The notes under the pieces were generated by a model, which was given only the letters and a program-made list of their open reading frames with translations, did no database searches and was not told where the DNA came from. Source: an uncultured Collinsella sp. (GTDB lineage: Bacteria > Actinomycetota > Coriobacteriia > Coriobacteriales > Coriobacteriaceae). Taken from it: DNA of 64,000 bases. Positions 7,240 to 27,104 of this stretch are shown one piece after another. Location: positions 674-64,673 of the forward strand of contig CAAECF010000109.1 of the NCBI GenBank assembly GCA_900754275.1, read 5' to 3'. Positions within the stretch are counted from its first letter, which is position 1. Every line of letters begins with the position of its first letter. The translations under genes were made by a program, and so were the position numbers.

Positions 7240-7425
7240 CCACTTGATAGAGGCGCGGGCACGAAGAGCCGCGGGCGAGCCGGCAGGCTTTGACCCCGTG
7301 GGGAGGCGAAACCCGCCGAACTGGGTTTTTCGGGCACGAACAACCTGGTGGGCCTGTGGGAAACACCCACAGGACTGTCTGCAGCAATGCGGGAGCGCTA
7401 TCCGGACATTGGGTCCACGCTATGC
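7240..7425 (+). ncRNA. lysine riboswitch (L-box) in the leader of the lysA-dapA-dapB-dapH operon
   Basis: Conserved L-box blocks are present in order: GATAGAGGCGC...GGGGAGGCGAAA...GCCGAAC...GGACTGTC...GGGAGCGCTATC, about 230-40 nt upstream of the lysA ATG. The 360-nt non-coding leader ends with a GAGG RBS. Confidence 0.7.
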
Positions 7426-13911: not shown

Positions 13912-14862
13912 TTAGCAGGAGAAGTCGACGCTGTCGATGATGTCCTTGAGGGCCTTGGCGGAGACGGTGAGCTCATGCTGCTCGTCGTCGTTCAGCGGCA
14001 CGGGGACGCGGCAGACGACGCCGTCGCGGCCAACGACCGTCGGCATGGAGATGGCCAGATCGGACAGGCCATACTCGCCCACCATGAGCGAGGAAACGGG
14101 CAGAACGGTCTGCTCATCACGCATAACAGCGGTGCAGATGCGCTTAACGGCCATGGCGACGCCGTAGTAGGTGGCGTGCTTCTTCTCGATGATGGTGTAG
14201 GCGGAGTTCTTAACGTCCTCGGCGATGCGCTTCTCGGCAGCCTCATGCTCCAGGTGGCCGTGAAGCTCGCAGAAGGTGTTCAGCGGCACGCCGGCAACCT
14301 GGGCGCTGGACCAAGCGACAAACTCGGAGTCGCCGTGCTCACCCATGACATAGGCCTGAACGTCGCGCGGGTCAACCTCGACGTGGGCACCAAGCATCTG
14401 CTGCAGACGGCCAGTGTCGAGCACGGTGCCGGAGCCGATGACGTGGCCCTCGGGCAGGCCGGACATCTTGATGGCGGCGTAGGTCAGAACATCGACCGGG
14501 TTGGAGACGATGAGCAGAATGCCATCGAAGCCGGACTTCTTAATCTCGGGGATAATGGACTTAAAGATGCTGACGTTCTTGTTGACCAGGTCCAGGCGGG
14601 TCTCACCGGGCTTCTGGGCAGCGCCAGCGGTGACGACGATCATGGCGGCGTCGGCGACATCGGAATAATCGCCGGCGTAGATCTTCATCGGCTCGGCAAA
14701 CGTCATGCCGTGCGCGATATCCAGGGCCTCACCCTCGGCGCGGTTCTTGTCCACGTCGATGAGGACCATCTCGGAGAACAGACCGCTCTGCATCAGCGCG
14801 AACGCCGAAGACGAACCGACGAAACCGCAGCCGACAATAGCGACCTTCTTCTCGTTAACCAT
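13912..14862 (-). CDS. ldh: L-lactate dehydrogenase
   Basis: VAIVGCGFVGSS Rossmann motif, LIDVDKNRAEGEALDIAHG, substrate-binding Arg and His regions. ATG at 14862 with a GGGAG RBS. The track ORF extends upstream to 14940, probably spuriously. Confidence 0.9.
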   Translation of the reverse strand: MVNEKKVAIVGCGFVGSSSAFALMQSGLFSEMVLIDVDKNRAEGEALDIAHGMTFAEPMKIYAGDYSDVADAAMIVVTAGAAQKPGETRLDLVNKNVSIFKSIIPEIKKSGFDGILLIVSNPVDVLTYAAIKMSGLPEGHVIGSGTVLDTGRLQQMLGAHVEVDPRDVQAYVMGEHGDSEFVAWSSAQVAGVPLNTFCELHGHLEHEAAEKRIAEDVKNSAYTIIEKKHATYYGVAMAVKRICTAVMRDEQTVLPVSSLMVGEYGLSDLAISMPTVVGRDGVVCRVPVPLNDDEQHELTVSAKALKDIIDSVDFSC

Positions 14863-15063
14863 TAGAAACTCCCATCTCACTCCACAAACAAGCCGCCCGG
14901 GAACGACCCGAGCGGCTTGTCGTAATCCCAATACATCCAATCGGGACTTTGATTATGCTCCTATTCGCAGCCAAAAATCGACCGTTTACCGAAATTGTTT
15001 GCAGAATTCGTAAAATAACTGCACGAAATCGGTTTCGATATATTGACGAGCCAAAATAGCTTT

Positions 15064-16227
15064 CTAATACAGGCCCGCCTCGCGAATGGCCTCGACAGCC
15101 AAAGCGATCTGGTCGGGCGGCAAGACCAGCGCCATGCGCACGTGCCCCTCGCCCGAAGGACCAAAGCTCGCGCCCGGCGTCACCACAACGCCGGCCTTCT
15201 CCATAAGCTCCTCGCAAAACGCCATGGAATCGGTGCGGCCACCGGGAAGCTTGGCCCACACAAACATAGAGCCATGCGCGTTGGGGCGCTCCCAGCCCAA
15301 GCCCTCAAGACCGTCGCACAGGGCATCGCGGCGCTCCTGGTACTTCAGACGCTGCGCCTCGACCTCATCGCGCGGACCGTTCAGGCAGGCGATGGCGGCC
15401 TTCTGGATCGGGAAGAACATGCCAAAGTCGATCTGGCCGCGCAGCTTGGCAAAGGCCGAGACCACGTCCTCTCGGCCGACCAAAAAGCCGATGCGGGCAC
15501 CGGTGACGTTAAACGACTTGGAGAGCGAGAAGAACTCAACGCCCACCTCGAGCGCGCCGGGGTACTGCAAGAAGCTGCCGCCCGGCTCGCCGTTGAACAC
15601 GATGTCGGAGTATGCGTTGTCGTGAACGATCAGCAGGTCGTGCTCGCGGGCAAAAGCGATGATCTCCTCGTAGATCTCGGGCGTGCCCACCGAGCCCACC
15701 GGGTTGGCGGGCAGCGACACGATCATGTACTTGGCACGATCGGCCACCTCGGGATCGATGCCCGCCACATAGGGCAGGTAATTGTGCTCCGCCACCAGCG
15801 GATAATACTCGAGTTTGGCGTCGGCGATCTTGGCCCCCGCCTCAAAAACCGGGTAGCACGGATCGGGAACCAAAATGGTGTCACCCGGATCGAGCAGGGC
15901 CAGGCCCAAATGGCCCACGCCCTCCTGCGTGCCGTTGCACGACTGCACCATGGACGGCGTAATGCCCGAAACGCCAAAGCGACGCTCATAGTAATCGCAC
16001 ACAGCTTGCTTGAGTTCGGGCAGGTCGCGCAGGGCATACTTCCACATCTCGGGATCTTGGGCTGCCTGCGTGAGCGCCTCGACCACGTGGTCGTACGGCT
16101 TAAAGTCGGGCGTGCCCACGCTCATGTTGTAAATGGTCTTGCCCTGAGCCTTCAGCGCAAGCAGTTTGTTGTTGAGCGAGGCGAAGACCTCCGCGCTAAA
16201 GCGGTCGAGACGCTGCGATGCCTGCAT
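15064..16227 (-). CDS. class I/II pyridoxal-phosphate aminotransferase (aspartate/LL-DAP or N-acetyl-DAP aminotransferase-like)
   Basis: SLSKSFNVTGARIGF PLP-lysine motif, about 387 aa. AAAGGTGG RBS before the Met at 16227. Confidence 0.8.
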   Translation of the reverse strand: MQASQRLDRFSAEVFASLNNKLLALKAQGKTIYNMSVGTPDFKPYDHVVEALTQAAQDPEMWKYALRDLPELKQAVCDYYERRFGVSGITPSMVQSCNGTQEGVGHLGLALLDPGDTILVPDPCYPVFEAGAKIADAKLEYYPLVAEHNYLPYVAGIDPEVADRAKYMIVSLPANPVGSVGTPEIYEEIIAFAREHDLLIVHDNAYSDIVFNGEPGGSFLQYPGALEVGVEFFSLSKSFNVTGARIGFLVGREDVVSAFAKLRGQIDFGMFFPIQKAAIACLNGPRDEVEAQRLKYQERRDALCDGLEGLGWERPNAHGSMFVWAKLPGGRTDSMAFCEELMEKAGVVVTPGASFGPSGEGHVRMALVLPPDQIALAVEAIREAGLY

Positions 16228-16345
16228 GGTGCCACCTTTCGATATGAAAAACGCGGCGCTCCGACAAGAGCGCCGCGCGATACGGGCCATCAGATTGCAA
16301 AAGTGTAACGCTTGCAACCCCCGTATTGGTTCAATTTAGCCAACC

Positions 16346-18346
16346 TTAGTCAATCGGATCGAGCGCATCGATCTGCGCAAGCCACAGACGTGAGCTGGCG
16401 TCACTCGGCATACGCCAATCGCCGCGCGGACTGAGCGTCACCGAGCCCACCTTGGGACCATCGGGCAGGCAGCTGCGCTTAAACTGCTGGGCAAAGAAGC
16501 GACGATAGAACGTACGCAACCACGTGTGGACGGTCTTGACGTCGTAGACGCCCTCGAAGCTCTTGAGCGCCATGCGGTAGATCTTGCCCGGCTCAAAGCC
16601 AAAACGCAGCAGGTAGTAGAGGAAGTAGTCGTGCAACTCGTACGGGCCCACCAAATCCTCGGTCTTCTGCGCAATCTCGCCGTCGCCCGTGGGCGGCAGA
16701 AGCTCGGGGGACACCGGCGTATCGAGGATATCGAGCAAGACCTCGGCAATGCGCCCGCCAAAGACATCGGCGGCATAGCGTACCAGATGGCGCACAAGCG
16801 TCTTGGGCACGCTCGCGTTGACGGCGTACATGCTCATGTGGTCGCCGTTATAGGTAGCCCAGCCGAGCGCCAGCTCCGACAGGTCGCCCGTGCCAATGAC
16901 AAAACCGCCAGCCTGGTTGGCCAGATCCATCAGAATCTGCGTACGCTCGCGCGCCTGGCTGTTCTCGTAGGTCACGTCCTGCACAGCTGGATCATGCTCA
17001 ATGTCCTTGAAGTGCTGCTCCACAGCCGCGTGGATCGAAACCTCGCGGAAGCTCACACCCAGGTCGCGGGCGAGCGACTCGGCATTCGACTTGGTGCGAT
17101 GCGTCGTGCCGAAGCCGGGCATGGACACGGCTGTGATACCAGTGCGCGGCAGCCCCAGTGCATCGAAGGCACGCACGGTCACAAGCAGCGCTAGCGTGGA
17201 GTCCAAGCCGCCCGAAAGGCCGATAACCGCAGCCTTGGTACCCGTGTGGGCAAGGCGGGTCTTGAGGCCCGCAGTCTGCAGATCGAGGATCGTCTCGCAG
17301 CGCTCGGCCAAGTCGCCGTGGTCGGCCGGCACAAAGGGCGCGCGCGGGAAAACGCGGTCGATATCGCAGGCATCGCGCAGGACGGGCTCTTTGGCCAGCA
17401 CGCCCTCAAATGAAAACTCAACAGTCGTGGCCTCAGGCGCATCGTCCGCGCGCGTCCACGTCGTCGAGCGACGGCGCTCGGCAACCAGACGGTCGAGGTC
17501 AACATCGGCGATGGCCATATCGCAGGTAAGCAGTTTGGTCGCGGCGAGCTTGGAGCCGTTTTCGTAGACGAGGTTCTCGCCCGCAAAGACCATGTCGGTC
17601 GTGGACTCGCCCTCGCTCGCATCTGCATAGGCATAGGCACAGTACAGGCGCGCGCTCTGGTTGGATATGAGGCTGCGTCGGTAATCTGCCTTGCCGATAA
17701 TCTCGTCCGAGGCCGACGGGTTGAGGATCACCGTCGCACCGGCAAGCGCCATCTCGGTCGAAGGGGGCGCCGGCACCCACAGGTCCTCGCAGACCTCAAC
17801 GCCCAGCACCATATCCTCGGCACCCTCGTCACAGCAGCGGTAGACAAGCTCCGAACCCAGCGGAACCGGACCCTGACCGGCAAACTCGACCCACACGGGA
17901 TCTGCGGGCGCCGGAGCAAACCAGCGGCGCTCGTAGAACTCGCCATAGTTGGGCAGATACTTCTTGGCCGTGAGGCCCAAAAGCTCGCCCGCGCAGCACA
18001 CGGCGGCGCAGTTGTAGATATTCTCGGCAACTGCAACGGGAAGACCGATAGTAAAGACAATCGGCAGCTCACGAGTCTCATCGAGGATATGCACCAAAGC
18101 AGCCTCGCAGGCATGCAGTAATGTGCGGTTATGGAACAGATCGGCCGCGGTATAGCCGCACAAGTTGAGCTCGGGCAGTACCAGCGCGCGAACGCCGCGC
18201 TCAACAGCCGCGCGAACAGCCGCTAACGCAACCTCGGCATTGCCCTCGACATCGGCCACGCGAATCTGCGGCGACGCCGCCGCCACACGCAAAAAGCCAT
18301 CGTTCTTATTAGCCGAAACGCAGCATTGCCTTGTTGATCTGGACAC
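16346..18346 (-). CDS. nadE: glutamine-dependent NAD+ synthetase (N-terminal nitrilase/CN-hydrolase domain plus C-terminal NAD synthase domain)
   Basis: CN-hydrolase domain first, then the PP-loop SGGLDSTLALLV and the NadE C-terminal domain; 666 aa. Confidence 0.9.
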   Translation of the reverse strand: MSRSTRQCCVSANKNDGFLRVAAASPQIRVADVEGNAEVALAAVRAAVERGVRALVLPELNLCGYTAADLFHNRTLLHACEAALVHILDETRELPIVFTIGLPVAVAENIYNCAAVCCAGELLGLTAKKYLPNYGEFYERRWFAPAPADPVWVEFAGQGPVPLGSELVYRCCDEGAEDMVLGVEVCEDLWVPAPPSTEMALAGATVILNPSASDEIIGKADYRRSLISNQSARLYCAYAYADASEGESTTDMVFAGENLVYENGSKLAATKLLTCDMAIADVDLDRLVAERRRSTTWTRADDAPEATTVEFSFEGVLAKEPVLRDACDIDRVFPRAPFVPADHGDLAERCETILDLQTAGLKTRLAHTGTKAAVIGLSGGLDSTLALLVTVRAFDALGLPRTGITAVSMPGFGTTHRTKSNAESLARDLGVSFREVSIHAAVEQHFKDIEHDPAVQDVTYENSQARERTQILMDLANQAGGFVIGTGDLSELALGWATYNGDHMSMYAVNASVPKTLVRHLVRYAADVFGGRIAEVLLDILDTPVSPELLPPTGDGEIAQKTEDLVGPYELHDYFLYYLLRFGFEPGKIYRMALKSFEGVYDVKTVHTWLRTFYRRFFAQQFKRSCLPDGPKVGSVTLSPRGDWRMPSDASSRLWLAQIDALDPID

Positions 18347-18458
18347 TGGAGGCCCCTTCTACCCTGAGATTCAGTCTAACGGACGTTCACATATCTCTAA
18401 CTAGCCAAAGCAACCTCCCAGTTTACTGAGAGGCCAACCTGTGCTAAAAGCATGTATT

Positions 18459-18510
18459 TCAAAAATATCTTTAATTAAAAAAGGAGAAATCGATAATCGA
18501 CTTCTCCTTT
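18459..18510 (-). terminator. rho-independent terminator closing the minus-strand radical-SAM/peptide operon
   Basis: On the minus strand, AAGGAGAAGTCGAT-tatcg-ATTTCTCCTT hairpin followed by TTTTTTAATTAAAG. Confidence 0.7.
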
Positions 18511-18534
18511 AAGCGAGGCGAGTAAATTCCGAAA

Positions 18535-18645
18535 CTAATGGCAGAATTTATCCATGTAGTCCTCAAAGTCGAACACTTCCACCACGACGCCCTCTTCCTG
18601 AAACTCTTTCAGTTGCTCCAAGAGATCTTTGTTAATAACGTCCAT
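18535..18645 (-). CDS. 36-aa acidic small ORF, candidate RiPP precursor peptide: MDVINKDLLEQLKEFQEEGVVVEVFDFEDYMDKFCH
   Basis: Not in the ORF track (under 60 aa). A perfect AGGAGG RBS lies 7 nt upstream of the ATG. It starts 14 nt after the stop of the radical SAM gene, is on the same strand and is followed by the terminator. AT-rich like the rest of the islet. Confidence 0.5.
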   Translation of the reverse strand: MDVINKDLLEQLKEFQEEGVVVEVFDFEDYMDKFCH

Positions 18646-18658
18646 GCAGAAACCTCCT

Positions 18659-20980
18659 CTATCTAATCAATTGTAGTATATCTGCTTTCATGCAATTATC
18701 AACCAACTTGTTTAATTGCTCCTCGTTTGCCGATAGTCCCTCTTTTTTCAAAATGTCGCGCACCTCGTTCTTAGTAATCGGCTTTTCAAACAACGAAAGC
18801 AAAGCGAACGAAAAATCATTAACCGCACACATTCTATGGGTGGCACAACTCAGCAGTACTCTTAACCCCTCTTTTGAGCGTCCGACTTCTTTCACAAACG
18901 AACTTTTAACCAATTGAAAACCATTATCGTGCATTACATAATCGGCATCGATATTTGTATTCAGCAATCCATAATGCAACAGTTCTTCTATCGCCCTTGT
19001 CAGCTCGAGGTCGCCCTGATCAAGGATAAGAGAAATGCTACAATCGGCCTCCAATAAACGGGCCAACTTAAGGTATACCAACTGGGAAACAGCATAGACA
19101 TGATGGTATTCAGAATTATAGAAGTAGGCAAATGGCTCAACGAGCACGACAGAGGTCTTGGAATCCAGCCAGATTCGATCAGCTGGATTTAGACTAGTTA
19201 GCCGTCGCTTTACTTTGGTCAAATGTCCCTTATACCTGACAGCGTGAATAGAATCTAGGATCCAGGTCACCTCTGAAATATGAAGCCGCTGGGGCAAGTC
19301 AATTGTGTCGCTACCGTTTATGACCTCTTGCATATAAAAATCAATATGATGCTCATCAGATAAGGATTTTGCTTCATTTAAAGTTAAACCAGTGCCTGAA
19401 ACATAATCCACTTCGAGGCGCAAATCCTCATATTGGGACTTCGGCATTACAGAGACACCATACTTATCGGGATGATTCCAAACATCCGACCCCATAACGA
19501 GACCAAAATTCGTAAATCCTCTCGTGGAATATGGAACACCACATACCTGTTTTGAATAATTCAAAACATTCTCTGTATAAGCTAAGGTGTTCAGAGCCTC
19601 TTCTTTAGTTTCGGTCGGAAAGCCAATCATAAAGAATAGATGAACAGGAATACCCGCATTGAGACAATCATGGATATTGCGATCAATCCAATCAACTCTC
19701 GTGTTCTTCTTCATTAGATCAAGAACTCTTTGGTTGTATGACTCGAGGCCAAACTGAATCTGCCTACATCCACTTTGGTATATCTTGTTGAAAACGTCTG
19801 TACTTAGGGTTGGAGAGAACCTCGTTTCTCCATGCCAGAAAAACGTTTTTCCCGATGCGTTTATTTCATCCGCGAGTTGCTCCATTCTTTTGCCTTCGAA
19901 TGTTTCATCCACAAAAGAGAAAACTCTCGTGCCGTATTTTTCATTTAACCGACACATTATTTCAAATACTCTCGATATAGGCATCTTTCGGTAACAACCA
20001 CCGGTAGCACCGGGAATGGTGCAGAAGGCGCAATGATTAAAACACTGCCTAGAGGAATAAACCGGCAATATTAACTCAGGCATGAAGTATTTAGAAAGGG
20101 CGAAGCCATCGAAATCGGGAACTGTATCGTTGATAAATGTTTGCTCAATCCGATGGTTTTTATATATCTTTCCACCTTTAGCATGGCAAAGGTTTGGAAC
20201 ACAGTCGAGATTGTCATCACCAGAGTCAAGAGCCTCAAGAAGACGTGCAAGCGGCTCTTCGCCGTCATACATCATTATCGAATCAATGTATTCAAAAAAG
20301 GGATGCCATTCTTTCATGCAGTCATCTGCTAAACGAGTAATGTAATTGCCGCCCAATGAGACGTGTTTAACAGATGGACATTCTTCTTTAATCAGTTTCG
20401 CTAACGTAACTGCAGAAATCAATTGGAAACAGCCGCTCACCGAAATCCCAATAAACTCGATTTTTTCCCTCTGAATACGCTTAAGAAAGGCAGTTTCATA
20501 GAAGGAAATAAACGGATTATGCAAGGTATCCGCAAGCGATTTCATTATTTCTGGTGTCGAATAATAATCATAGGGCAGATCTATGGAGTTGAACGTGTAT
20601 TTAACTCCATATGAGACGTGATTTATGATATAGAGTGCATTTCTAAAAATGTTTTCAGCATATTGTCTTTCTTTTAGATTAAAGTATCTCTTCGATCTGA
20701 AAATATCTTTTGCCTCGTCAACATTAAGTGCTGACTTTTGTATCAACTCGATTGTTAATTGAACATTCGAACTAAACGAATCCTTTGATTCCCGATACCT
20801 TTTACAGCACTCTTCGACATGTCTAAAAGATAGGAGGTCATCGTAAAATTCCACGTTTAAGTCAACAATGTCAACTTTGTATTGTTCAACCTCTTGAAGA
20901 TATGACTTCAAAACAGGCAAGGCAAGATACGGCCCCACTGGACTCCATCCTGGGGGAAATACTAAAAGCGTTTTAGGCAT
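18659..20980 (-). CDS. B12-binding-domain radical SAM enzyme (class B-like) with about 200-aa C-terminal extension
   Basis: CFNHCAFC (CxxxCxxC) at residues 313-320. The preceding 300 aa have a cobalamin-binding Rossmann-like pattern (LLVFPP, VDIVDLN, IGISVSG, LGGNYIT). 773 aa, low GC. Confidence 0.8.
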   Translation of the reverse strand: MPKTLLVFPPGWSPVGPYLALPVLKSYLQEVEQYKVDIVDLNVEFYDDLLSFRHVEECCKRYRESKDSFSSNVQLTIELIQKSALNVDEAKDIFRSKRYFNLKERQYAENIFRNALYIINHVSYGVKYTFNSIDLPYDYYSTPEIMKSLADTLHNPFISFYETAFLKRIQREKIEFIGISVSGCFQLISAVTLAKLIKEECPSVKHVSLGGNYITRLADDCMKEWHPFFEYIDSIMMYDGEEPLARLLEALDSGDDNLDCVPNLCHAKGGKIYKNHRIEQTFINDTVPDFDGFALSKYFMPELILPVYSSRQCFNHCAFCTIPGATGGCYRKMPISRVFEIMCRLNEKYGTRVFSFVDETFEGKRMEQLADEINASGKTFFWHGETRFSPTLSTDVFNKIYQSGCRQIQFGLESYNQRVLDLMKKNTRVDWIDRNIHDCLNAGIPVHLFFMIGFPTETKEEALNTLAYTENVLNYSKQVCGVPYSTRGFTNFGLVMGSDVWNHPDKYGVSVMPKSQYEDLRLEVDYVSGTGLTLNEAKSLSDEHHIDFYMQEVINGSDTIDLPQRLHISEVTWILDSIHAVRYKGHLTKVKRRLTSLNPADRIWLDSKTSVVLVEPFAYFYNSEYHHVYAVSQLVYLKLARLLEADCSISLILDQGDLELTRAIEELLHYGLLNTNIDADYVMHDNGFQLVKSSFVKEVGRSKEGLRVLLSCATHRMCAVNDFSFALLSLFEKPITKNEVRDILKKEGLSANEEQLNKLVDNCMKADILQLIR

Positions 20981-20987
20981 ATCAACG

Positions 20988-22175
20988 TCACATCTTTCGC
21001 AAATAATTCAATTGAAACACAACTACCATCATAATTGAAAATACACCAAGTCCTGTAACGAGAATTGAGAACATCGCGATGCTCGTGAACAGCGAAACAA
21101 GGAGTGTTGAAATAACAACAGCAACCGATTGCAAAGACTCCCTAATTGAAAACAGGCTTATCGATTCAGATTCGTCTCTCGCCAAATCCTGCAGCGATGT
21201 TATGAGAAGCACATCTTGAATGGCGTTTCCGGCACCGACGATAAAAAGGAAAATAAACGATATCCCAGACGCATAGCGATAGCCAAACGCCAGATACGCA
21301 CCGAGCGCAAGATACGTCACAAAACAATATGATTTAACGCAATCGGAACCACTAATTAAACGACCATATATTGTATTTCCGAACAACAGTCCGATTGTAA
21401 GACTACTCTGAAGGAATCCGTATTGTATCGATGACGAGTCAAATTGCAATTGCGCAATAGCTGGCAAAAGAGAATTCAGAGAGCCGAATGCCACACCACT
21501 AGAAATATCGATTAATAGGAAACCAATTGCCAAGTGCTTCGCGCTAAGATCACTAAATGCAGTCCTGTTTTTTTCATTTTTGCTTATCCCCTCTTTATCA
21601 TTAACCTCGATAACCGACGGAACATCTCGCAGCAACCAGAACGACGCGGCAAAAGAAAGCGCGTCTAATGCAAGAACAGCCTCCGCCCCAAATTGAGCGA
21701 CAACAAAACCGCCGGCAACTGGCCCCAGAACCATCATCAAATTCTGCAGAAACCCAAACGAATTATTAATTACGTCGCGATTGATACTATTCGTATTGGC
21801 TCTTAACAACGAGTAAAAGCAGGGCATTTCAACCGTTCGGCAAAGCGATACCGCGCACGTAATAGCAAACATACTCCATTTACTATCAACAAAAATATAG
21901 CAAACGAATAATCCCGCGCGAATTAAGTCTGCCAATCTCATGGCCTGCAGTGTCCCGATACCCATCTTCTGAGGCAGCTGCGCGAGCGCAACTGAAAACA
22001 GAGAGGGGGCAAATCTGCAGCAGACCATCAAAGCAGTTGCAGAAACATCGTGAGTTACCTCGTAAATCAGCATTGGCAAAGCAATATTCGCACACCAATT
22101 GCCTATTTCGCTTATCCCTCTAGCAATATATAGGACCCGAACCGGACGGCTAGCTCTCAATACCGTGAACATCAC
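20988..22175 (-). CDS. MFS transporter (12 predicted TM helices), putative exporter
   Basis: 395-aa hydrophobic ORF with MFS-like helix pairs. 8-nt gap to the radical SAM gene. Confidence 0.7.
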   Translation of the reverse strand: MMFTVLRASRPVRVLYIARGISEIGNWCANIALPMLIYEVTHDVSATALMVCCRFAPSLFSVALAQLPQKMGIGTLQAMRLADLIRAGLFVCYIFVDSKWSMFAITCAVSLCRTVEMPCFYSLLRANTNSINRDVINNSFGFLQNLMMVLGPVAGGFVVAQFGAEAVLALDALSFAASFWLLRDVPSVIEVNDKEGISKNEKNRTAFSDLSAKHLAIGFLLIDISSGVAFGSLNSLLPAIAQLQFDSSSIQYGFLQSSLTIGLLFGNTIYGRLISGSDCVKSYCFVTYLALGAYLAFGYRYASGISFIFLFIVGAGNAIQDVLLITSLQDLARDESESISLFSIRESLQSVAVVISTLLVSLFTSIAMFSILVTGLGVFSIMMVVVFQLNYLRKM

Positions 22176-22431
22176 GATTAACCTCGTATTTCAGGCCTCG
22201 CTCATCCCTTAATAGGAATCCATAATCAACCAAGTACCGCCTCAACACGGCATAATCAGGATAGAGCTGTGACAGCACACGATTAACCTGAAGCTCCGTA
22301 TAACTTGTATTTAATTCAAAGAAAGAGACGGCCCATAGCAGCATGATTCTTTTATAGCTTTCCTTTTTTGGAATTGAAACCAGCTCGCCATTCTTGAGAA
22401 ATCGTTTTTTAAAGTCTATTAGCTCATCCAT
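22150..22431 (-). CDS. DUF2087-domain protein (putative small transcriptional regulator)
   Basis: YTELQVNRVLSQLYPDYAVLRRYLVDYGFLLRDERGLKYEV matches the DUF2087 signature. Overlaps the MFS start by 26 nt. Confidence 0.5.
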   Translation of the reverse strand: MDELIDFKKRFLKNGELVSIPKKESYKRIMLLWAVSFFELNTSYTELQVNRVLSQLYPDYAVLRRYLVDYGFLLRDERGLKYEVNRDVHGIES

Positions 22432-22510
22432 TCACATCCTCCATTTCATACGCATCTAATACTAAAAATGCATACGCTTTAGGTCATCGCATTCGGCTTC
22501 TATATTCGAA

Positions 22511-22750
22511 CTAAACTCGAACTAATCTAAATGATTTGCTCAAACACTCTTCGAAAGCTCGTTTTTCACTCTGAGTAAAACGCCCTTCCCAGTCAGTCCA
22601 CGAACAGGAAGGCAACTCACAGCGAGCGGAGTCGAAGCCCTCTGCCGTCGGTCGTTCAAAATGCACGACAACCTTTTCGATATCCCCATCTGTAATCAGG
22701 TCAGAATGAACGACCTCGGTACCGTCTTCGAATGTCATATACGGGTACAT
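22511..22750 (-). CDS. hypothetical 79-aa protein
   Basis: ATG at 22750 with a GAGGTGG RBS. The upstream part of the track ORF (to 23005) is GC-rich antisense of the neighbouring plus-strand gene. Confidence 0.35.
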   Translation of the reverse strand: MYPYMTFEDGTEVVHSDLITDGDIEKVVVHFERPTAEGFDSARCELPSCSWTDWEGRFTQSEKRAFEECLSKSFRLVRV

Positions 22751-22924
22751 CACGTAAACCACCTCGCAATCGTAAATCCAGTTTAGCATCAAGCTATTGC
22801 ACCAAAGACAGCAAGCCCCCTTGATGAGTTGATGGTATCTGTTAAATGTCACGTACGATTCGCATCTGGTGGGTACCCTGATGGCTACACGAAACGAAGC
22901 AGATTTACACCGGGAGGACCCCGT

Positions 22925-23875
22925 ATGACAACCAAGTACACCGACGCGCCGCGCACGCGCGTCATGACGCCAGCATCGCTCAACAACGGCGTGCACGAGA
23001 ACCATTCCATCGGACAGACCATGGCCATCGCGCCCAAAAAGGGCCTGTTTGACGACATTTCCATTCCCCAGATCATCGCCGGCGCCGCAGCTGCCGCCAC
23101 GAGCGTCGCACTTGCCTCCAAGATTGGTATCGCTGGTTCAGTAATTGGCGCCGCCGTGAGCTCGGTCATCACCGTTGTGTCATCGCAGGTCTACCGCCAC
23201 TTTATCTCTGCCAGCGCCGAAGCCATCAAAGGTACGCACGCCGCCGTCGACTACCCCGCCGGCGCCTACGAGCCCGTTGAGTTTAATGCCGAGGAGCACC
23301 TGGGCGGCGCCGCGACTACGCAGGAGATGCGCCAGATTGCGGGGCGCGCGACCACGGCGCGCGTTGCTCCCGACAGCCTGCGCGCCAAGGCGGCGGCAGA
23401 GCGCAGTCAGACGCAAAAGAAGGTCATCGTCTTCTCGATCGCCATCGCCATCGTCGCGGTCATCGCCTGCGCCGGCGCCATCCTTATCACCACCGCCGGT
23501 GAGGGTCTGGGCGAGCGCCCCGAGCCAATCCTTTCGTCGCGCACGACGGAAAGCGATGCAAATGGCAACACCCAGTCGCAAGACCAGCAGGCACAGACGG
23601 ACGGCACGCAAGACAGTTCCACCTCTACCGATTCGTCCTCGAATACCCAAAACCAATCGCAGGGCGCCGATTCTTCTGTGAACAACAGCGGCGCGCAATC
23701 CGGCACGACCGACTCAAGCCAAACGACTGACGGTTCGCAGCCGAACACGGGAGGCCAGACGAGCGACACCACGTCGGGAACGGGCACAGCAGACAGCAAC
23801 AACAGCAATTCGAGTGGCACCACATCGGGCACGGCATCTGACAGTTCAAGCCAAGGCACGACATCGGACAACTAG
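22925..23875 (+). CDS. membrane protein with two TM segments and long S/T/Q/D/G-rich low-complexity C-terminal tail
   Basis: GGGAGG RBS before the ATG at 22925. Hydrophobic stretches (IIAGAAAAATSVALASKIGIAGSVIGAAV; IVFSIAIAIVAVIACAGAILI) followed by about 130 aa of S/T/Q/D repeats. Confidence 0.5.
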   Translation: MTTKYTDAPRTRVMTPASLNNGVHENHSIGQTMAIAPKKGLFDDISIPQIIAGAAAAATSVALASKIGIAGSVIGAAVSSVITVVSSQVYRHFISASAEAIKGTHAAVDYPAGAYEPVEFNAEEHLGGAATTQEMRQIAGRATTARVAPDSLRAKAAAERSQTQKKVIVFSIAIAIVAVIACAGAILITTAGEGLGERPEPILSSRTTESDANGNTQSQDQQAQTDGTQDSSTSTDSSSNTQNQSQGADSSVNNSGAQSGTTDSSQTTDGSQPNTGGQTSDTTSGTGTADSNNSNSSGTTSGTASDSSSQGTTSDN

Positions 23876-24010
23876 GCGCTGCATCCCCAGATAGGCAACC
23901 TGTACAACGGACGCGAATCGATAGCGGTTCGCGCCCGTTTGCCTTGGGCGACGAGATGGCAAGCCCCGCGCGATGGTAAGATGCTTTGGTGTGTAAAGAG
24001 GAGATTTGCC

Positions 24011-25309
24011 ATGAGCAAGACAATAGTTACGCCCACGCTTTCGCTGGGCAACCACATCTATCTGTATCGCCTGCTGCGCGATGCGATTGGATGCGGCAAG
24101 CAAACGTTTATGACGCAGGTCGAGGAGGCACTCGCCGCTGGTGACATGGCCGCTTATGACCTGGGCTTCGAGTCCACGCGCGAGCTGCTCGAGGAGCTCG
24201 ACGACTGCATTAAGCTGACCGTCTTTAAGGGCGGTCGCCTGTATGCCACGGTCATCGCCAACGAGGCCTGGGATGCCGCCCTTGCCAAGGGCGAGGACAA
24301 GCCCAAGGCTGCCAAGGGAGCCAAGCAGTCCTACAAAAAGAAAAAACGCGGCGAGAAGGACCTCAAGGCCGTGCGCCCCAAGCACGTTAAGCGTCCCGAG
24401 CCTGAAGCCATGGTTGAAGCCGTGCCAGAATCCGAGCCCGAGCCCGAGATCGAAGTCGCTATTGAGGTAACGGCAGAAGCCGAAACCGAAATCACCGCTA
24501 CGACCGATCCCGAAGTCATATCCGAGCAGGAAGCCACTGCGGAGCTCAACGAGGCTCCCAAGTCGACAGCAGAAGAAGCCGCTAGCCAACCTGAGGCGTC
24601 TGCGCTCCAAAACAGCGATGTCTTTGGCGACGAGGCCGAGGACGATCAGCCCGCCGATCAAGACGCTACCGAGTCGGCGCCGAAGCCCGAGACGCCGCAG
24701 CCCGCCATCTCGCTCACGGTCGTCTATGACCCCGAGAACGCCAACGCCGGCATCACCACTATGGCATCCACGCCCATCGAAGCAAAGTCGAGCGTCGAGA
24801 ATGAGAGCGCGATGCAGGTTGAGTTTGAAACTGCAGCTGTAGACGCGCCCGTCACCGTGAAGCCCGCAGATTCCGCAGTTAAGCCGGAACCGGTGCCTGA
24901 GCCCGCACCCGTCATCGAATCCGTGCCCACCTCTACTTGCGACCAAGTTCCCGCACCGGCACCGGCTTCGGTACCCGCAGCGGCCCCAACCCCCGCACCC
25001 GCAGCGCCCGCCATCCCTGAGGACTTCCCCGTCGATTTCGCAACCGAGGTCTTCTGCCCCGGCCCGCTTCTGCACCAGTTGTCGACCTATCTCCCCTACG
25101 GCGCCGACACGCTCGGCATTGTCGGCGAGTACTACTGGATCGCCCGCGAGCGCGGTACCATCGAGGCCGCGCGAAACCGCGCAAACTTCCCCCTGTGCTA
25201 CACGCAGGCCGGCGAGCGCCGCGAGGTTACCGTGCGCATCCGCCGCAACACCACCGGCGGTCTCGGAGCCGCCTGGGCCATCGACAAGGTCGAAGCCCCG
25301 GTCGAGTAA
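24011..25309 (+). CDS. hypothetical protein with basic patch and E/P/A-rich acidic low-complexity centre
   Basis: AAGAGGAGA RBS before the MSKTIV start. The 540-aa antisense ORF is G/R/L-rich and rejected. Confidence 0.5.
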   Translation: MSKTIVTPTLSLGNHIYLYRLLRDAIGCGKQTFMTQVEEALAAGDMAAYDLGFESTRELLEELDDCIKLTVFKGGRLYATVIANEAWDAALAKGEDKPKAAKGAKQSYKKKKRGEKDLKAVRPKHVKRPEPEAMVEAVPESEPEPEIEVAIEVTAEAETEITATTDPEVISEQEATAELNEAPKSTAEEAASQPEASALQNSDVFGDEAEDDQPADQDATESAPKPETPQPAISLTVVYDPENANAGITTMASTPIEAKSSVENESAMQVEFETAAVDAPVTVKPADSAVKPEPVPEPAPVIESVPTSTCDQVPAPAPASVPAAAPTPAPAAPAIPEDFPVDFATEVFCPGPLLHQLSTYLPYGADTLGIVGEYYWIARERGTIEAARNRANFPLCYTQAGERREVTVRIRRNTTGGLGAAWAIDKVEAPVE

Positions 25310-25352
25310 AAAACGGCCTCGGATAGCCAATTTGACCATCCGAGGCCGTTTG
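25308..25352. terminator. bidirectional rho-independent terminator
   Basis: AAAAA-CGGCCTCGGAT-agccaatttgacc-ATCCGAGGCCG-TTT. Confidence 0.75.
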
Positions 25353-25364
25353 AATTCAGGCCTT

Positions 25365-25757
25365 TTAGTTGTCATCGGTGCATATAGACACCAGAGAAGC
25401 AAGCTCATCCTCAAGTTGCGGAGCAAAGTATCTAAAAGAAACCTGCGCTCCAGTCGGTATCGACTCAATCATATTCGCAGCATTATCTGAAACTCGGTAC
25501 GATGCAGTTTCACCTGTCTTCAAATCCTCTATTGAGCAGACAGCGTCTTCAGCATCAATCGACCTAAGCACGCCTTTTCCTTGTAACATCACATCGGCAT
25601 GCCCGCCAGCTATTTCTAATGAACCTGAGTCTGTCGCAGTCACTTCTCCGGAACCTCCGCGCGATATCTCTTCCTTTGTTGAACAGCCCACCAATGAAGC
25701 CATCAGCACCAAAGACAGAGCTAGTCGAATCGCCCTACTTCGAAAAAGTCGTTCCAT
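25365..25757 (-). CDS. lipoprotein (LVGCS lipobox)
   Basis: Signal peptide with LALSLVLMASLVGC, then a 110-aa soluble domain; lower GC than neighbours. Start within 25757-25784 is uncertain. Confidence 0.5.
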   Translation of the reverse strand: MERLFRSRAIRLALSLVLMASLVGCSTKEEISRGGSGEVTATDSGSLEIAGGHADVMLQGKGVLRSIDAEDAVCSIEDLKTGETASYRVSDNAANMIESIPTGAQVSFRYFAPQLEDELASLVSICTDDN

Positions 25758-26862
25758 AAGTCCACGCATAATAGCTCTGATCATACTTCAGGAAGGATAA
25801 AGATGAATTCCAGCCGTCCGCTATGCCAATCATCTGCCTTGTCTCTCCAGTTTTCTTACCAGTAAGTGTGGCGTAAGCCTCCGCTGTTACAGAATGGGCT
25901 GATCCGTTGTACAAACTCGCATGTAAAACATTCGGTCTATTAGAGTTAATCTCATTTTGAATGCTCGCGATAGCCGGAGAGGAGACAGTGCGGGCGATAA
26001 GAGTACTTCCTCTGCTTGCGCAGTAATTTGTAAACCCCGTTGCACAGGTTGATATCGGCGTTCCACCCAAAACAACGCCGGGAACAGTCTGTTCTTCATC
26101 GGAAAGAGCATGGGTATTGGTGTAATTCCATATCTGCATATATTGCGAAGGGTCGCTATATAAATTGGCAATGCCATACAGTTCCGCAACGTTCGAAAAA
26201 GCTGTCACCATACAAGCATAGTGGGCGGTAAGCCTCTTAATCTCGCTTTCATCATATGACATAAACTGAGAAATGGAACGAAATCCAGATACTGTGTAAT
26301 CCTGCATTTGAGTTGCGTAAATTACAACATCGTTCCAGCTTGAAGGTTTATTCGATAAAACGACAGGCCGTCCTTCTATGGAAACAGCCGGGATTGTTCT
26401 TCCGCAATTTGTTGTTATTGAACCGTCCAAAGATTGCACGCCGAATTCGAATGGATTGATCATTACGACTGGGTTATTGAAAGAATAAGACTCGACACCA
26501 AGATCTCCTCCCCGATCCATAGGGCTGACTAAGCCGTCTCCAAAACGATATCCCGTAAGTATTTCATCATCTGAAGCATCTAAAACCAAATAGCCCGCGG
26601 CTCTATTGGATGTCACAACCGGAACAATGTAACCAAGCGGGGACCCATCAACATCTACAAAAGGAATAGGGTCAGAAGGCGTATACGAATAGCCGAGGAG
26701 TCCCTTTATATATTTATCGGCAAGCTCTTGCGCAATTTCAGAAGTAAATTGTATCTGCTCACCATCAATATTGCCCGTCGAAGCAAAAACCTCTTTCGGA
26801 CGTGCGGCTAAGGCGACAATTGAAGACGCGACAAGTTGCAGAAAACGACGACGCGAAAGCAT
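25735..26862 (-). CDS. Tat-signal secreted protein, possible papain-like/C39-like cysteine peptidase fold
   Basis: MLSRRRFLQLVASSIVALAA twin-arginine signal. C-terminal region has Cys...His...GW spacing (TNYCASRG ... HASLYNG ... GWNSS). Lower GC. Confidence 0.5.
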   Translation of the reverse strand: MLSRRRFLQLVASSIVALAARPKEVFASTGNIDGEQIQFTSEIAQELADKYIKGLLGYSYTPSDPIPFVDVDGSPLGYIVPVVTSNRAAGYLVLDASDDEILTGYRFGDGLVSPMDRGGDLGVESYSFNNPVVMINPFEFGVQSLDGSITTNCGRTIPAVSIEGRPVVLSNKPSSWNDVVIYATQMQDYTVSGFRSISQFMSYDESEIKRLTAHYACMVTAFSNVAELYGIANLYSDPSQYMQIWNYTNTHALSDEEQTVPGVVLGGTPISTCATGFTNYCASRGSTLIARTVSSPAIASIQNEINSNRPNVLHASLYNGSAHSVTAEAYATLTGKKTGETRQMIGIADGWNSSLSFLKYDQSYYAWTYGTTFSK

Positions 26863-27104
26863 ATGTTCTTCTTTCTAGAGAAGCGACTTATAGGGTACTC
26901 CTATTCTATAATCTTTTTTGTAACGTTACAGCACTGGTTATATTTCAATTCGATTTGCTTATGTCCTTGCAACCCAATGCGTCTTTACGTTTTAAACGGA
27001 ATTAGAAAATCACTCATAGCAAAAACGGGCTTTAATCCCAAAGAGATGACTTTGATTATGAATCAAACCCGCAGCCAGGGCATAGCTGCAGTGCAATTGC
27101 TACA

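Follow-up and report, generated by a model that had tools for sequence, protein, structure and literature searches.

A low-GC cassette with a putative precursor peptide

Four open reading frames (ORFs), all on the minus strand and tightly packed between positions 18535 and 22431, form a compact cassette in the genome of a Collinsella bacterium of the aerofaciens group. The window analyzed here is the whole stretch of 64,000 nucleotides (nt), and all coordinates refer to it unless another locus is named. An earlier reading of this DNA proposed a candidate system for a ribosomally synthesized peptide with post-translational modifications (RiPP), consisting of a DUF2087 regulator, a major facilitator superfamily (MFS) exporter, a B12-binding radical S-adenosylmethionine (SAM) enzyme, and a 36-amino-acid (aa) peptide. 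All features described in that original prediction, including the low GC content and the four co-directional, packed genes, are present on the minus strand. The mapped elements are as follows.

22150-22431, minus: DUF2087-only protein, 93 aa (PF09860, E = 4.6e-20)
20988-22175, minus: MFS transporter, 395 aa (PF07690, MFS_1, E = 1.9e-16; PF05977, MFS_3, E = 5e-12)
18659-20980, minus: radical SAM enzyme, 773 aa (PF04055, E = 7.6e-18)
20021-20044, minus: CxxxCxxC motif for the [4Fe-4S] cluster and SAM (CFNHCAFC, enzyme residues 313-320)
18956-19219, minus: first predicted winged-helix unit, resembling a RiPP recognition element (RRE), at about residues 588-675 (AlphaFold2 topology, Foldseek)
18662-18916, minus: second predicted unit, a PqqD-like RRE, at about residues 689-773 (profile, Foldseek, and Pfam matches of homologues)
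18653-18658, minus: AGGAGG ribosome-binding site, 7 nt 5' of the peptide ATG (read from the sequence)
18535-18645, minus: 36-aa putative precursor peptide (homologous small ORFs, codon-level conservation)
18470-18510 (stem 18480-18510), minus: intrinsic terminator with a 14-bp stem, 3-nt loop, and U-tract (-18.3 kcal/mol, z = -2.9)
18250-22500: island of low GC content and low divergence (GC content and sliding identity over 80 Collinsella genomes)

The DUF2087 and MFS genes overlap by 26 nt, and gaps of 7 and 13 nt separate the MFS gene from the enzyme gene and the enzyme gene from the peptide ORF, respectively. The GC content is 0.34-0.47 across positions 18250-22500 versus about 0.6 in the flanks. 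The mapping also confirmed that the enzyme gene is followed by a tiny ORF with an AGGAGG ribosome-binding site and then by a terminator.

The predicted peptide, MDVINKDLLEQLKEFQEEGVVVEVFDFEDYMDKFCH, includes 11 acidic and 3 Lys residues and has no match to any Pfam or NCBIfam model. Its leader would span approximately residues 1-22 and carries an LLEQLKE helix motif, and its conserved core is EVFDFEDYMDKFCH, in which K33-F34 forms a [KQ]-[YF] dyad. The AGGAGG sequence is identical in all Collinsella copies, and GGAGG is also present at the homologous locus of another member of the Coriobacteriia (L081). The last 15 residues do not vary among 123 copies from Coriobacteriia. A comparison of the Collinsella and L081 genes gives 5 synonymous and 0 nonsynonymous changes for the last 14 codons and 6 and 12, respectively, for codons 2-22. 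Furthermore, divergent Coriobacteriia variants (P0167, P0176, and P0191) retain EVFDFEDYMDKFCH unchanged and have variable leaders. These sequence comparisons indicate purifying selection at the codon level on the C-terminal core, a pattern that reads as the signature of a translated leader-plus-core precursor.

Two side observations concern this gene. At codon 15 (18601-18603), within the leader, there is a balanced-looking Phe/Ser polymorphism (TTT in 65 copies, TCT in 57), and the core is invariant. A promoter-like sequence (TTGATA-16 nt-TATACT, 10 of 12 matches) lies at 18675-18702 on the minus strand, within the 3' end of the enzyme gene and just 5' of the peptide gene, although the scan for such sites was overall not above chance. 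Its position is reminiscent of an internal start for the bottromycin precursor gene.

Beyond Collinsella, 10 lineages from three phyla have homologues of the enzyme, with 34-60% identity. The distant neighborhoods were drawn from contigs encoding homologues and from a scan of metagenomes in which the Desulfosporosinus protein served as the query. The expectation that homologues elsewhere retain a conserved small ORF beside them was borne out: an adjacent small ORF is present in 10 of 11 lineages, Collinsella included, and these ORFs are homologous. The position of the Collinsella ORF as that of a precursor peptide is thus matched by homologous small ORFs that adjoin homologous radical SAM genes. 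The small ORFs of the nine other lineages have in common an LLExLKE segment in the N-terminal leader and, at the C-terminus, the motif [KQ]-[YF]-x. The dyad usually follows [ST][ST], with C-terminal forms [ST][ST][KQ]Y or DK-F, and precursors of the family are 31-49 aa long. Their sequences or C-terminal ends, and their positions relative to the radical SAM gene, are listed here.

L081 (Coriobacteriia), downstream: MLPIDLEIIEKLKETCEEGVKIEVFDFEDYMDKFCH
Lachnospiraceae (L082, L116), downstream: ...ENLENQDYVMKYAN and ...DYVVKYST
Desulfosporosinus acidiphilus (L084), downstream: ...EVFDTCSNSTQYV
Dorea, downstream: ...NDAMNTTQYSP
Lactococcus lactis (L087), downstream: ...DSEMNTKYC
Fusobacterium nucleatum, downstream: ...GSSLTTKYA
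L170, downstream: ...KEPNSTKYTSPE
Paraclostridium ghonii plasmid, downstream: ...SQSTTQYCLK
Streptomyces, upstream: ...PNRVNSKYALLQEPGNS

In a leave-one-lineage-out analysis with hidden Markov models (HMMs), conducted against a background of 200-500 stop-to-stop ORFs per locus, the adjacent ORF was the top-scoring candidate in 9 of the 11 loci. The Collinsella peptide was recovered with an E value of 4e-7 even when both Coriobacteriia peptides were excluded from the model. All nine lineages listed above combine the radical SAM gene and the adjacent small ORF with an MFS gene. Approximately 30 environmental loci (L139-L169) with about 31% identity match the enzyme only over its first 530-600 residues or so; at these loci a tblastn query with the C-terminal region gave no match, and the peptide HMM finds no adjacent ORF (best E value of 3.4).

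Several of these loci differ from the Collinsella cassette in their additional genes. Among the neighboring regulators, Rgg occurs in L. lactis, one Lachnospiraceae genome has a LytTR response regulator, and Dorea has a histidine kinase with a LuxR-type regulator. At L170 (1900-12448 of that locus), the radical SAM enzyme, peptide, and MFS genes are clustered with a full-length LanB-type dehydratase, a multinuclear nonheme iron-dependent oxidase (MNIO) of the MbnB/TglH family with its partner ORF, an M3 peptidase, and a spermine-synthase-like gene. A spermine-synthase-like gene also follows the MFS gene in Desulfosporosinus (L084, 10253-10957). Therefore, some lineages have an elaborated form of the family that includes further RiPP enzymes. 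The L. lactis version (L087, 4042-8743) has the order rgg, radical SAM gene, 34-aa peptide gene, and MFS_3 gene. Its peptide is found on at least 1000 contigs, its enzyme in 595 index blocks, and the representative protein on 349 contigs. The L. lactis cassette is annotated merely as hypothetical, and it may be one of the unexplained regions assigned to radical SAM-modified RiPPs (RaS-RiPPs) in antiSMASH-based reports of L. lactis genomes.

The radical SAM enzyme and its partner proteins

The radical SAM core that had been recognized from the CFNHCAFC motif is confirmed by the PF04055 match and by conservation of its cysteines, as two of them (C313 and C320) never vary and the third, C317, is kept in at least 90% of 16 homologues. 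An AlphaFold2 model of the enzyme (16 homologues) has a pLDDT of 89 and a pTM of 0.90. When the whole model was searched with Foldseek, the top matches in the Protein Data Bank (PDB) were all B12-dependent radical SAM enzymes (OxsB, TsrM, MgmA, TokK, and CysS; E values of 1e-15 to 1e-11). A search of PDB sequences with the whole enzyme yielded only AprD4 (1.4e-5), and the B12-binding domain PF02310 matches 9 of the 16 homologues (best E value of 1.4e-10). Because of these fold matches and the PF02310 matches in homologues, rather than a Pfam match of its own, the enzyme is predicted to be a class B (cobalamin-type) radical SAM enzyme. The proposal of a cobalamin-binding-like N-terminal domain therefore stands at the level of fold and homologues; the Pfam match on this protein itself is below threshold.

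No NCBIfam equivalog exists for the enzyme, whose scores fall short of all curated-family cut-offs. The best match is TIGR03975 (RiPP maturation radical SAM C-methyltransferase, rSAM_ocin_1), with 120.1 bits versus a cut-off of 281.85 and an alignment spanning residues 6-519. Lower scores were obtained for the PhpK P-methyltransferase family (TIGR04479, 107.4 bits versus a cut-off of 600) and for rSAM_ApyD (NF050148, 84.6 bits versus 750). In line with the original prediction, the enzyme does not fall into any characterized nonpeptide family, and the closest curated family acts on RiPPs. No phosphonate or phosphinate genes are found among the Pfam-annotated neighbors of the loci examined, although no search was aimed at them. 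A tblastn search of plasmids gave only a radical SAM protein from Rhizobium with 26% identity, and public records label the products just "radical SAM protein" and "uncharacterised protein."

The approximately 200-aa C-terminal extension had been suspected of binding the precursor, with an RRE or winged helix on the one hand and a SPASM domain on the other as the structures to look for. In the AlphaFold2 model this region forms two consecutive units (about residues 588-675 and 689-773), each with beta-strands first and then three helices. The enzyme has no SPASM match in Pfam and no Cys motif for an auxiliary cluster; its sole other invariant Cys is C405. In a comparison of the C-terminal profile with PDB sequences, the two best matches were TbiB1 (E = 0.034) and a PqqD-family protein. 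Foldseek matches to a model of the isolated domain (pLDDT 90) were mostly RRE-bearing RiPP enzymes. Both units align to the tandem RREs of ThcOx (201 columns, E = 5e-4), and further matches include TigE, TbiB1 with its leader (TMt 0.64), TglHI, MibB, lasso B1, CteB, MccB, and the PbtF RRE. Likewise, the Pfam PqqD model (PF05402) matches the position of the second unit in 2 of the 16 homologues.

The same profile was used in a filter-free HMMER search of 1.84 billion representative proteins, which retrieved 91 proteins. About 25 of these are full-length radical SAM fusions, and the remainder are mostly proteins of 85-110 aa or about 200 aa. We checked ten profile matches, comprising a 645-aa fusion, two proteins of 205 aa, six of 86-95 aa, and one 86-aa protein without any match. 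Nine of the ten exceed the Pfam PqqD threshold, and they include tandem-PqqD proteins and the 645-aa fusion of PqqD to a lasso cyclase. Because the AlphaFold2 model, the Foldseek matches, the PDB profile matches, and the PqqD proteins retrieved by the profile all point to this identity, the C-terminal extension is predicted to be a tandem PqqD-like RRE. Fold and homology thus favor a precursor-binding role, in which the leader would be the bound segment.

The MFS gene is a confirmed member of the cassette, with matches to both MFS_1 and MFS_3. An MFS gene, mostly of the MFS_3 type, adjoins the homologous radical SAM gene in 10 of 11 lineages. The Collinsella transporter is EntS-like (NCBIfam NF007792, 1.9e-13, below the cut-off) and presumably exports the product. 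The DUF2087 family occurs with the radical SAM gene in five lineages (Collinsella plus L081, L082, L084, and L089), and outside Collinsella it is fused to helix-turn-helix (HTH), GerE, or methyltransferase domains. The Collinsella protein has no recognizable DNA-binding domain and no HTH. Its earlier designation as a regulator is therefore a functional guess. BtmL, the DUF2087 protein of the bottromycin cluster, modulates expression of the precursor gene (PMC7113386), and by analogy the Collinsella protein could modulate expression of the cassette. A direct repeat, GCGTATG (22471-22477 and 22447-22453, minus strand), lies in the 80 nt upstream of the DUF2087 gene and may be an operator or a chance occurrence.

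Population pattern and surroundings of the island

To compare the island among relatives, we used the best 80 loci of a scan of a genome collection, all of which are from Collinsella of the aerofaciens group and collinear with the window. The cassette resides at one chromosomal site in all 80 genomes. At the nucleotide level, the cassette is 99.3-99.8% identical among them, and sliding identity across the island is 98.2-99.8%, compared with 83-98% (mostly 88-96%) for the flanks at 14000-18250 and 22500-25250, which carry housekeeping genes. Identity steps sharply at about 18250 and 22500, the same places where GC content does. Synonymous codon differences are about 17-fold rarer in the radical SAM gene than in the adjacent NadE gene, a rarity that argues for recent spread and not for protein-level constraint alone. 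These sequence patterns suggest recent recombinational spread, or a sweep, of an imported low-GC island at a fixed site. The related cassette at L081 likewise has a GC content of 43% within flanks of 59-64%.

Some strains carry in-frame deletion alleles (P0002-P0007; window positions 20800-21100) in which MFS residues 1-358 are fused to enzyme residues 63-773, creating a 1053-aa product. Found in several independent assemblies, these alleles have lost the enzyme's conserved FPPGW N-terminus and probably represent naturally occurring loss of function.

Other features near the cassette were also inspected. A 79-aa ORF (MYPYMTFEDGTEVVHSDL...) lies at the island edge (22511-22747, minus strand); it was rejected as a cassette member, as it matches no Pfam family and does not resemble the ORF in the corresponding position of L081. 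A longer, 164-aa reading of this ORF has a nonsynonymous to synonymous ratio of about 1.2. A second low-GC island (25300-27000, GC content 0.41-0.52), carried by only about 35 of the 80 Collinsella genomes, is about 99% identical among those. It includes a 375-aa ORF (25735-26862, minus strand) that matches no Pfam family and has a twin-arginine-like signal (MLSRRRFLQL...). With Rfam, no cobalamin riboswitch or other RNA was found near the cassette; the sole match in the window is a lysine riboswitch (RF00168, 79 bits, 7240-7408, plus strand) that is unrelated to it.

Proposed pathway, alternatives, and relation to known systems

From these findings, we judge it probable that the cassette is a minimal, horizontally acquired RiPP operon, with C-methylation as the likeliest chemistry. 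In the pathway we propose, the 36-aa peptide would be translated, as its ribosome-binding site and codon-level conservation suggest, and its leader, through the LLEQLKE region, would dock on the C-terminal tandem PqqD-like RRE predicted in silico from fold and homology. The cobalamin-type radical SAM core would then modify the conserved C-terminal core at or beside K33-F34. The MFS_3/EntS-like transporter would export the product, and the DUF2087 protein may modulate expression in the manner of BtmL. No protease is encoded, and therefore removal of the leader, if any, would fall to a housekeeping enzyme. The regulators that neighbor homologous cassettes (Rgg, LytTR, and two-component systems) hint at a secreted signal or a narrow-spectrum antimicrobial.

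The reaction itself can be proposed only by analogy. A bottromycin methyltransferase beta-methylates Phe. Our best guess is that an unactivated carbon in or beside the [KQ]-[YF] dyad is C-methylated, because most B12-dependent radical SAM enzymes that act on peptides are C-methyltransferases. The leading candidate is beta-methylation of the aromatic residue, because ApyD, an RRE-containing B12-dependent radical SAM enzyme, beta-methylates the penultimate Tyr of its precursor ApyA (PMC10635010) and because the family member at L170 sits with an MNIO gene, as in the apy cluster.

Several observations weigh against the proposed operon and its chemistry. No peptide was found beside the Chondromyces homologue, and the leave-one-out models failed to retrieve the L. 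lactis and Fusobacterium peptides. For the Collinsella enzyme itself, PF02310 reaches only 19.8 bits versus a threshold of 32.1, and PF05402 gives no match even at E values up to 1. The cassette holds neither a leader protease nor an immunity gene, and MFS exporters of the EntS type typically carry small molecules and are a poor fit for a 36-mer. The deletion alleles imply that the cassette is dispensable, or can be lost, in some strains. Finally, B12-dependent radical SAM enzymes are also known to make cross-links, as PbsB does on aromatic side chains (PMC12257519), and to carry out other reactions, so that methylation is just their commonest outcome.

This last point leads to the strongest alternative, in which the peptide is the same RiPP precursor and the B12-dependent enzyme forms a cross-link or another radical modification (C-C or C-S, involving Tyr/Phe, Lys/Gln, or a neighboring Cys). 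A review additionally records thioether formation and ring chemistry by such enzymes, several family peptides have a Cys near the dyad (KFCH, KYC, and QYCLK), and the enzyme is under the cut-off of every methyltransferase equivalog. However, Cys could not be a universal partner, as the Lachnospiraceae, Dorea, L170, and Streptomyces peptides lack it, and the missing SPASM domain and auxiliary-cluster Cys motif also speak against cross-linking. Given that most of the characterized peptide-acting enzymes of this class (PoyB/C, the bottromycin methyltransferases, ApyD, MpcB, and TmoD) C-methylate, we regard a cross-link as unlikely.

Less likely still is that the peptide serves as a scaffold, as in the pyrroloquinoline quinone, mycofactocin, and pearlin pathways, such that its C-terminus is modified, a protease frees a small metabolite, and the EntS-like MFS protein exports it. 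The target motif does lie 1-3 residues from the C-terminus in most lineages, the residues past the dyad vary freely (AN, AT, SP, ST, V, C, and A), and the transporter conserved beside the enzyme is of the MFS_3/EntS small-molecule type, not a peptidase-ABC exporter. An M3 peptidase and an MNIO are encoded at L170, and the B12-dependent radical SAM enzyme TmoD works on the C-terminus of a scaffold peptide in the pearlin pathway (PMC11002830). Nevertheless, the Collinsella cassette encodes no protease or PEARL, the Streptomyces peptides have 9 residues past the dyad, and the whole 14-residue core, not merely its last residues, is invariant in the Coriobacteriia. Action of the enzyme on a lipid, cofactor, or other nonpeptide substrate, with the 36-aa ORF incidental, is close to refuted: weaker NCBIfam matches include PhpK, HpnJ, BchE, and lipid methylases, and public annotations are noncommittal, but a homologous adjacent ORF is kept across phyla with purifying selection on its core, the enzyme bears a fused tandem PqqD-like RRE, and no conserved lipid or cofactor genes lie nearby.

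The RiPP operon that we favor is closest in logic to the systems of ApyD, PoyB/C, and the bottromycin methyltransferases. The apy cluster of Burkholderia thailandensis, which makes aminopyruvatide, differs in that the Collinsella cassette has no MNIO (ApyHI), P450, or SAM methyltransferase, its precursor family has an LLExLKE leader and a [KQ]-[YF] dyad with no C-terminal Asp, and its RRE is tandem and C-terminal. PoyB and PoyC, from the proteusin pathways, belong to the best-scoring curated family (TIGR03975) and are class B enzymes acting on ribosomal peptides. Proteusins, in contrast, have long precursors of the NHLP/Nif11 type with many modification sites and many tailoring enzymes, whereas here a single enzyme accompanies a 31-49-aa precursor. 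The bottromycin clusters (btm/bot) share B12-dependent radical SAM C-methyltransferases, an MFS exporter, and a DUF2087 protein with the Collinsella cassette (PMC7113386). Unlike them, the cassette has no P450, hydrolases, or follower peptide, and no YcaO is found in it or in the homologous loci. Furthermore, the enzymes are not orthologous, and BtmL has an ArsR-like winged HTH that the Collinsella DUF2087 protein lacks.

The known enzymes of streptococcal RaS-RiPP systems are of the SPASM type, in contrast to the B12-type family described here. The streptococcal RaS-RiPP clusters resemble the Collinsella cassette in their minimal regulator-precursor-enzyme-transporter organization, and the L. 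lactis homologue directly follows an rgg gene. However, the enzymes that a review discusses form cross-links, with B12 dependence described for none of them, and the Collinsella precursor corresponds to none of the seven subfamily names that we compared from it (PMC9389541). The Collinsella cassette also lacks rgg and shp; rgg was seen beside the L. lactis homologue only. MpcB/MpcC of clavusporin and TmoD of pearlin are B12-dependent radical SAM enzymes that C-methylate ribosomal or scaffold peptides, and the mpc cluster has an MFS gene (PMC10849626, PMC11002830). Identity with MpcB was rejected, as MpcB has a CX7CX2C motif and requires a DUF5825 partner, whereas the Collinsella enzyme has CX3CX2C, a fused RRE, and no DUF5825. 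TmoD acts on a PEARL-appended residue, and there is no PEARL in the Collinsella cassette.

The earlier failure to match the peptide to a known RiPP family has held up, as no curated model matches it and no published description was found. More broadly, no description of the enzyme-peptide family was found in the searchable literature (subscription-only papers excluded) or in curated HMM libraries. A real radical SAM RiPP family is not surprising as a category, yet this family, its precursor motif, and its population behavior in gut Collinsella appear to be new. A bolder scenario, which we consider improbable, is that the enzyme performs novel radical chemistry on the adjacent Lys/Gln-Tyr/Phe pair, or that a small amino-acid- or dipeptide-derived metabolite is released from the C-terminus of a scaffold and exported, with the product under strong recent selection in the human gut. 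The sign of such selection would be that a cassette of almost uniform sequence has passed through Collinsella lineages with 4-12% divergence in their flanking genes.

Bacteria of the Collinsella aerofaciens group are common in human gut samples, and related cassettes are carried by L. lactis, F. nucleatum, gut Lachnospiraceae, and Streptomyces. The exact Collinsella peptide is found on at least 1000 contigs, and the 90%-identity cluster of the enzyme includes 12,784 sequences. The family is a good lead for genome mining. With a single enzyme, a single peptide, and a single exporter, plus a conserved dyad that is well defined, the compact cassette makes a new RiPP class unusually accessible to study. 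The near-identity of the island amid diverged flanks suggests that it spread recently by recombination and, in turn, that its function is under selection at present. If the enzyme is truly cobalamin dependent, then production of the peptide would be tied to the availability of cobamides in the gut.

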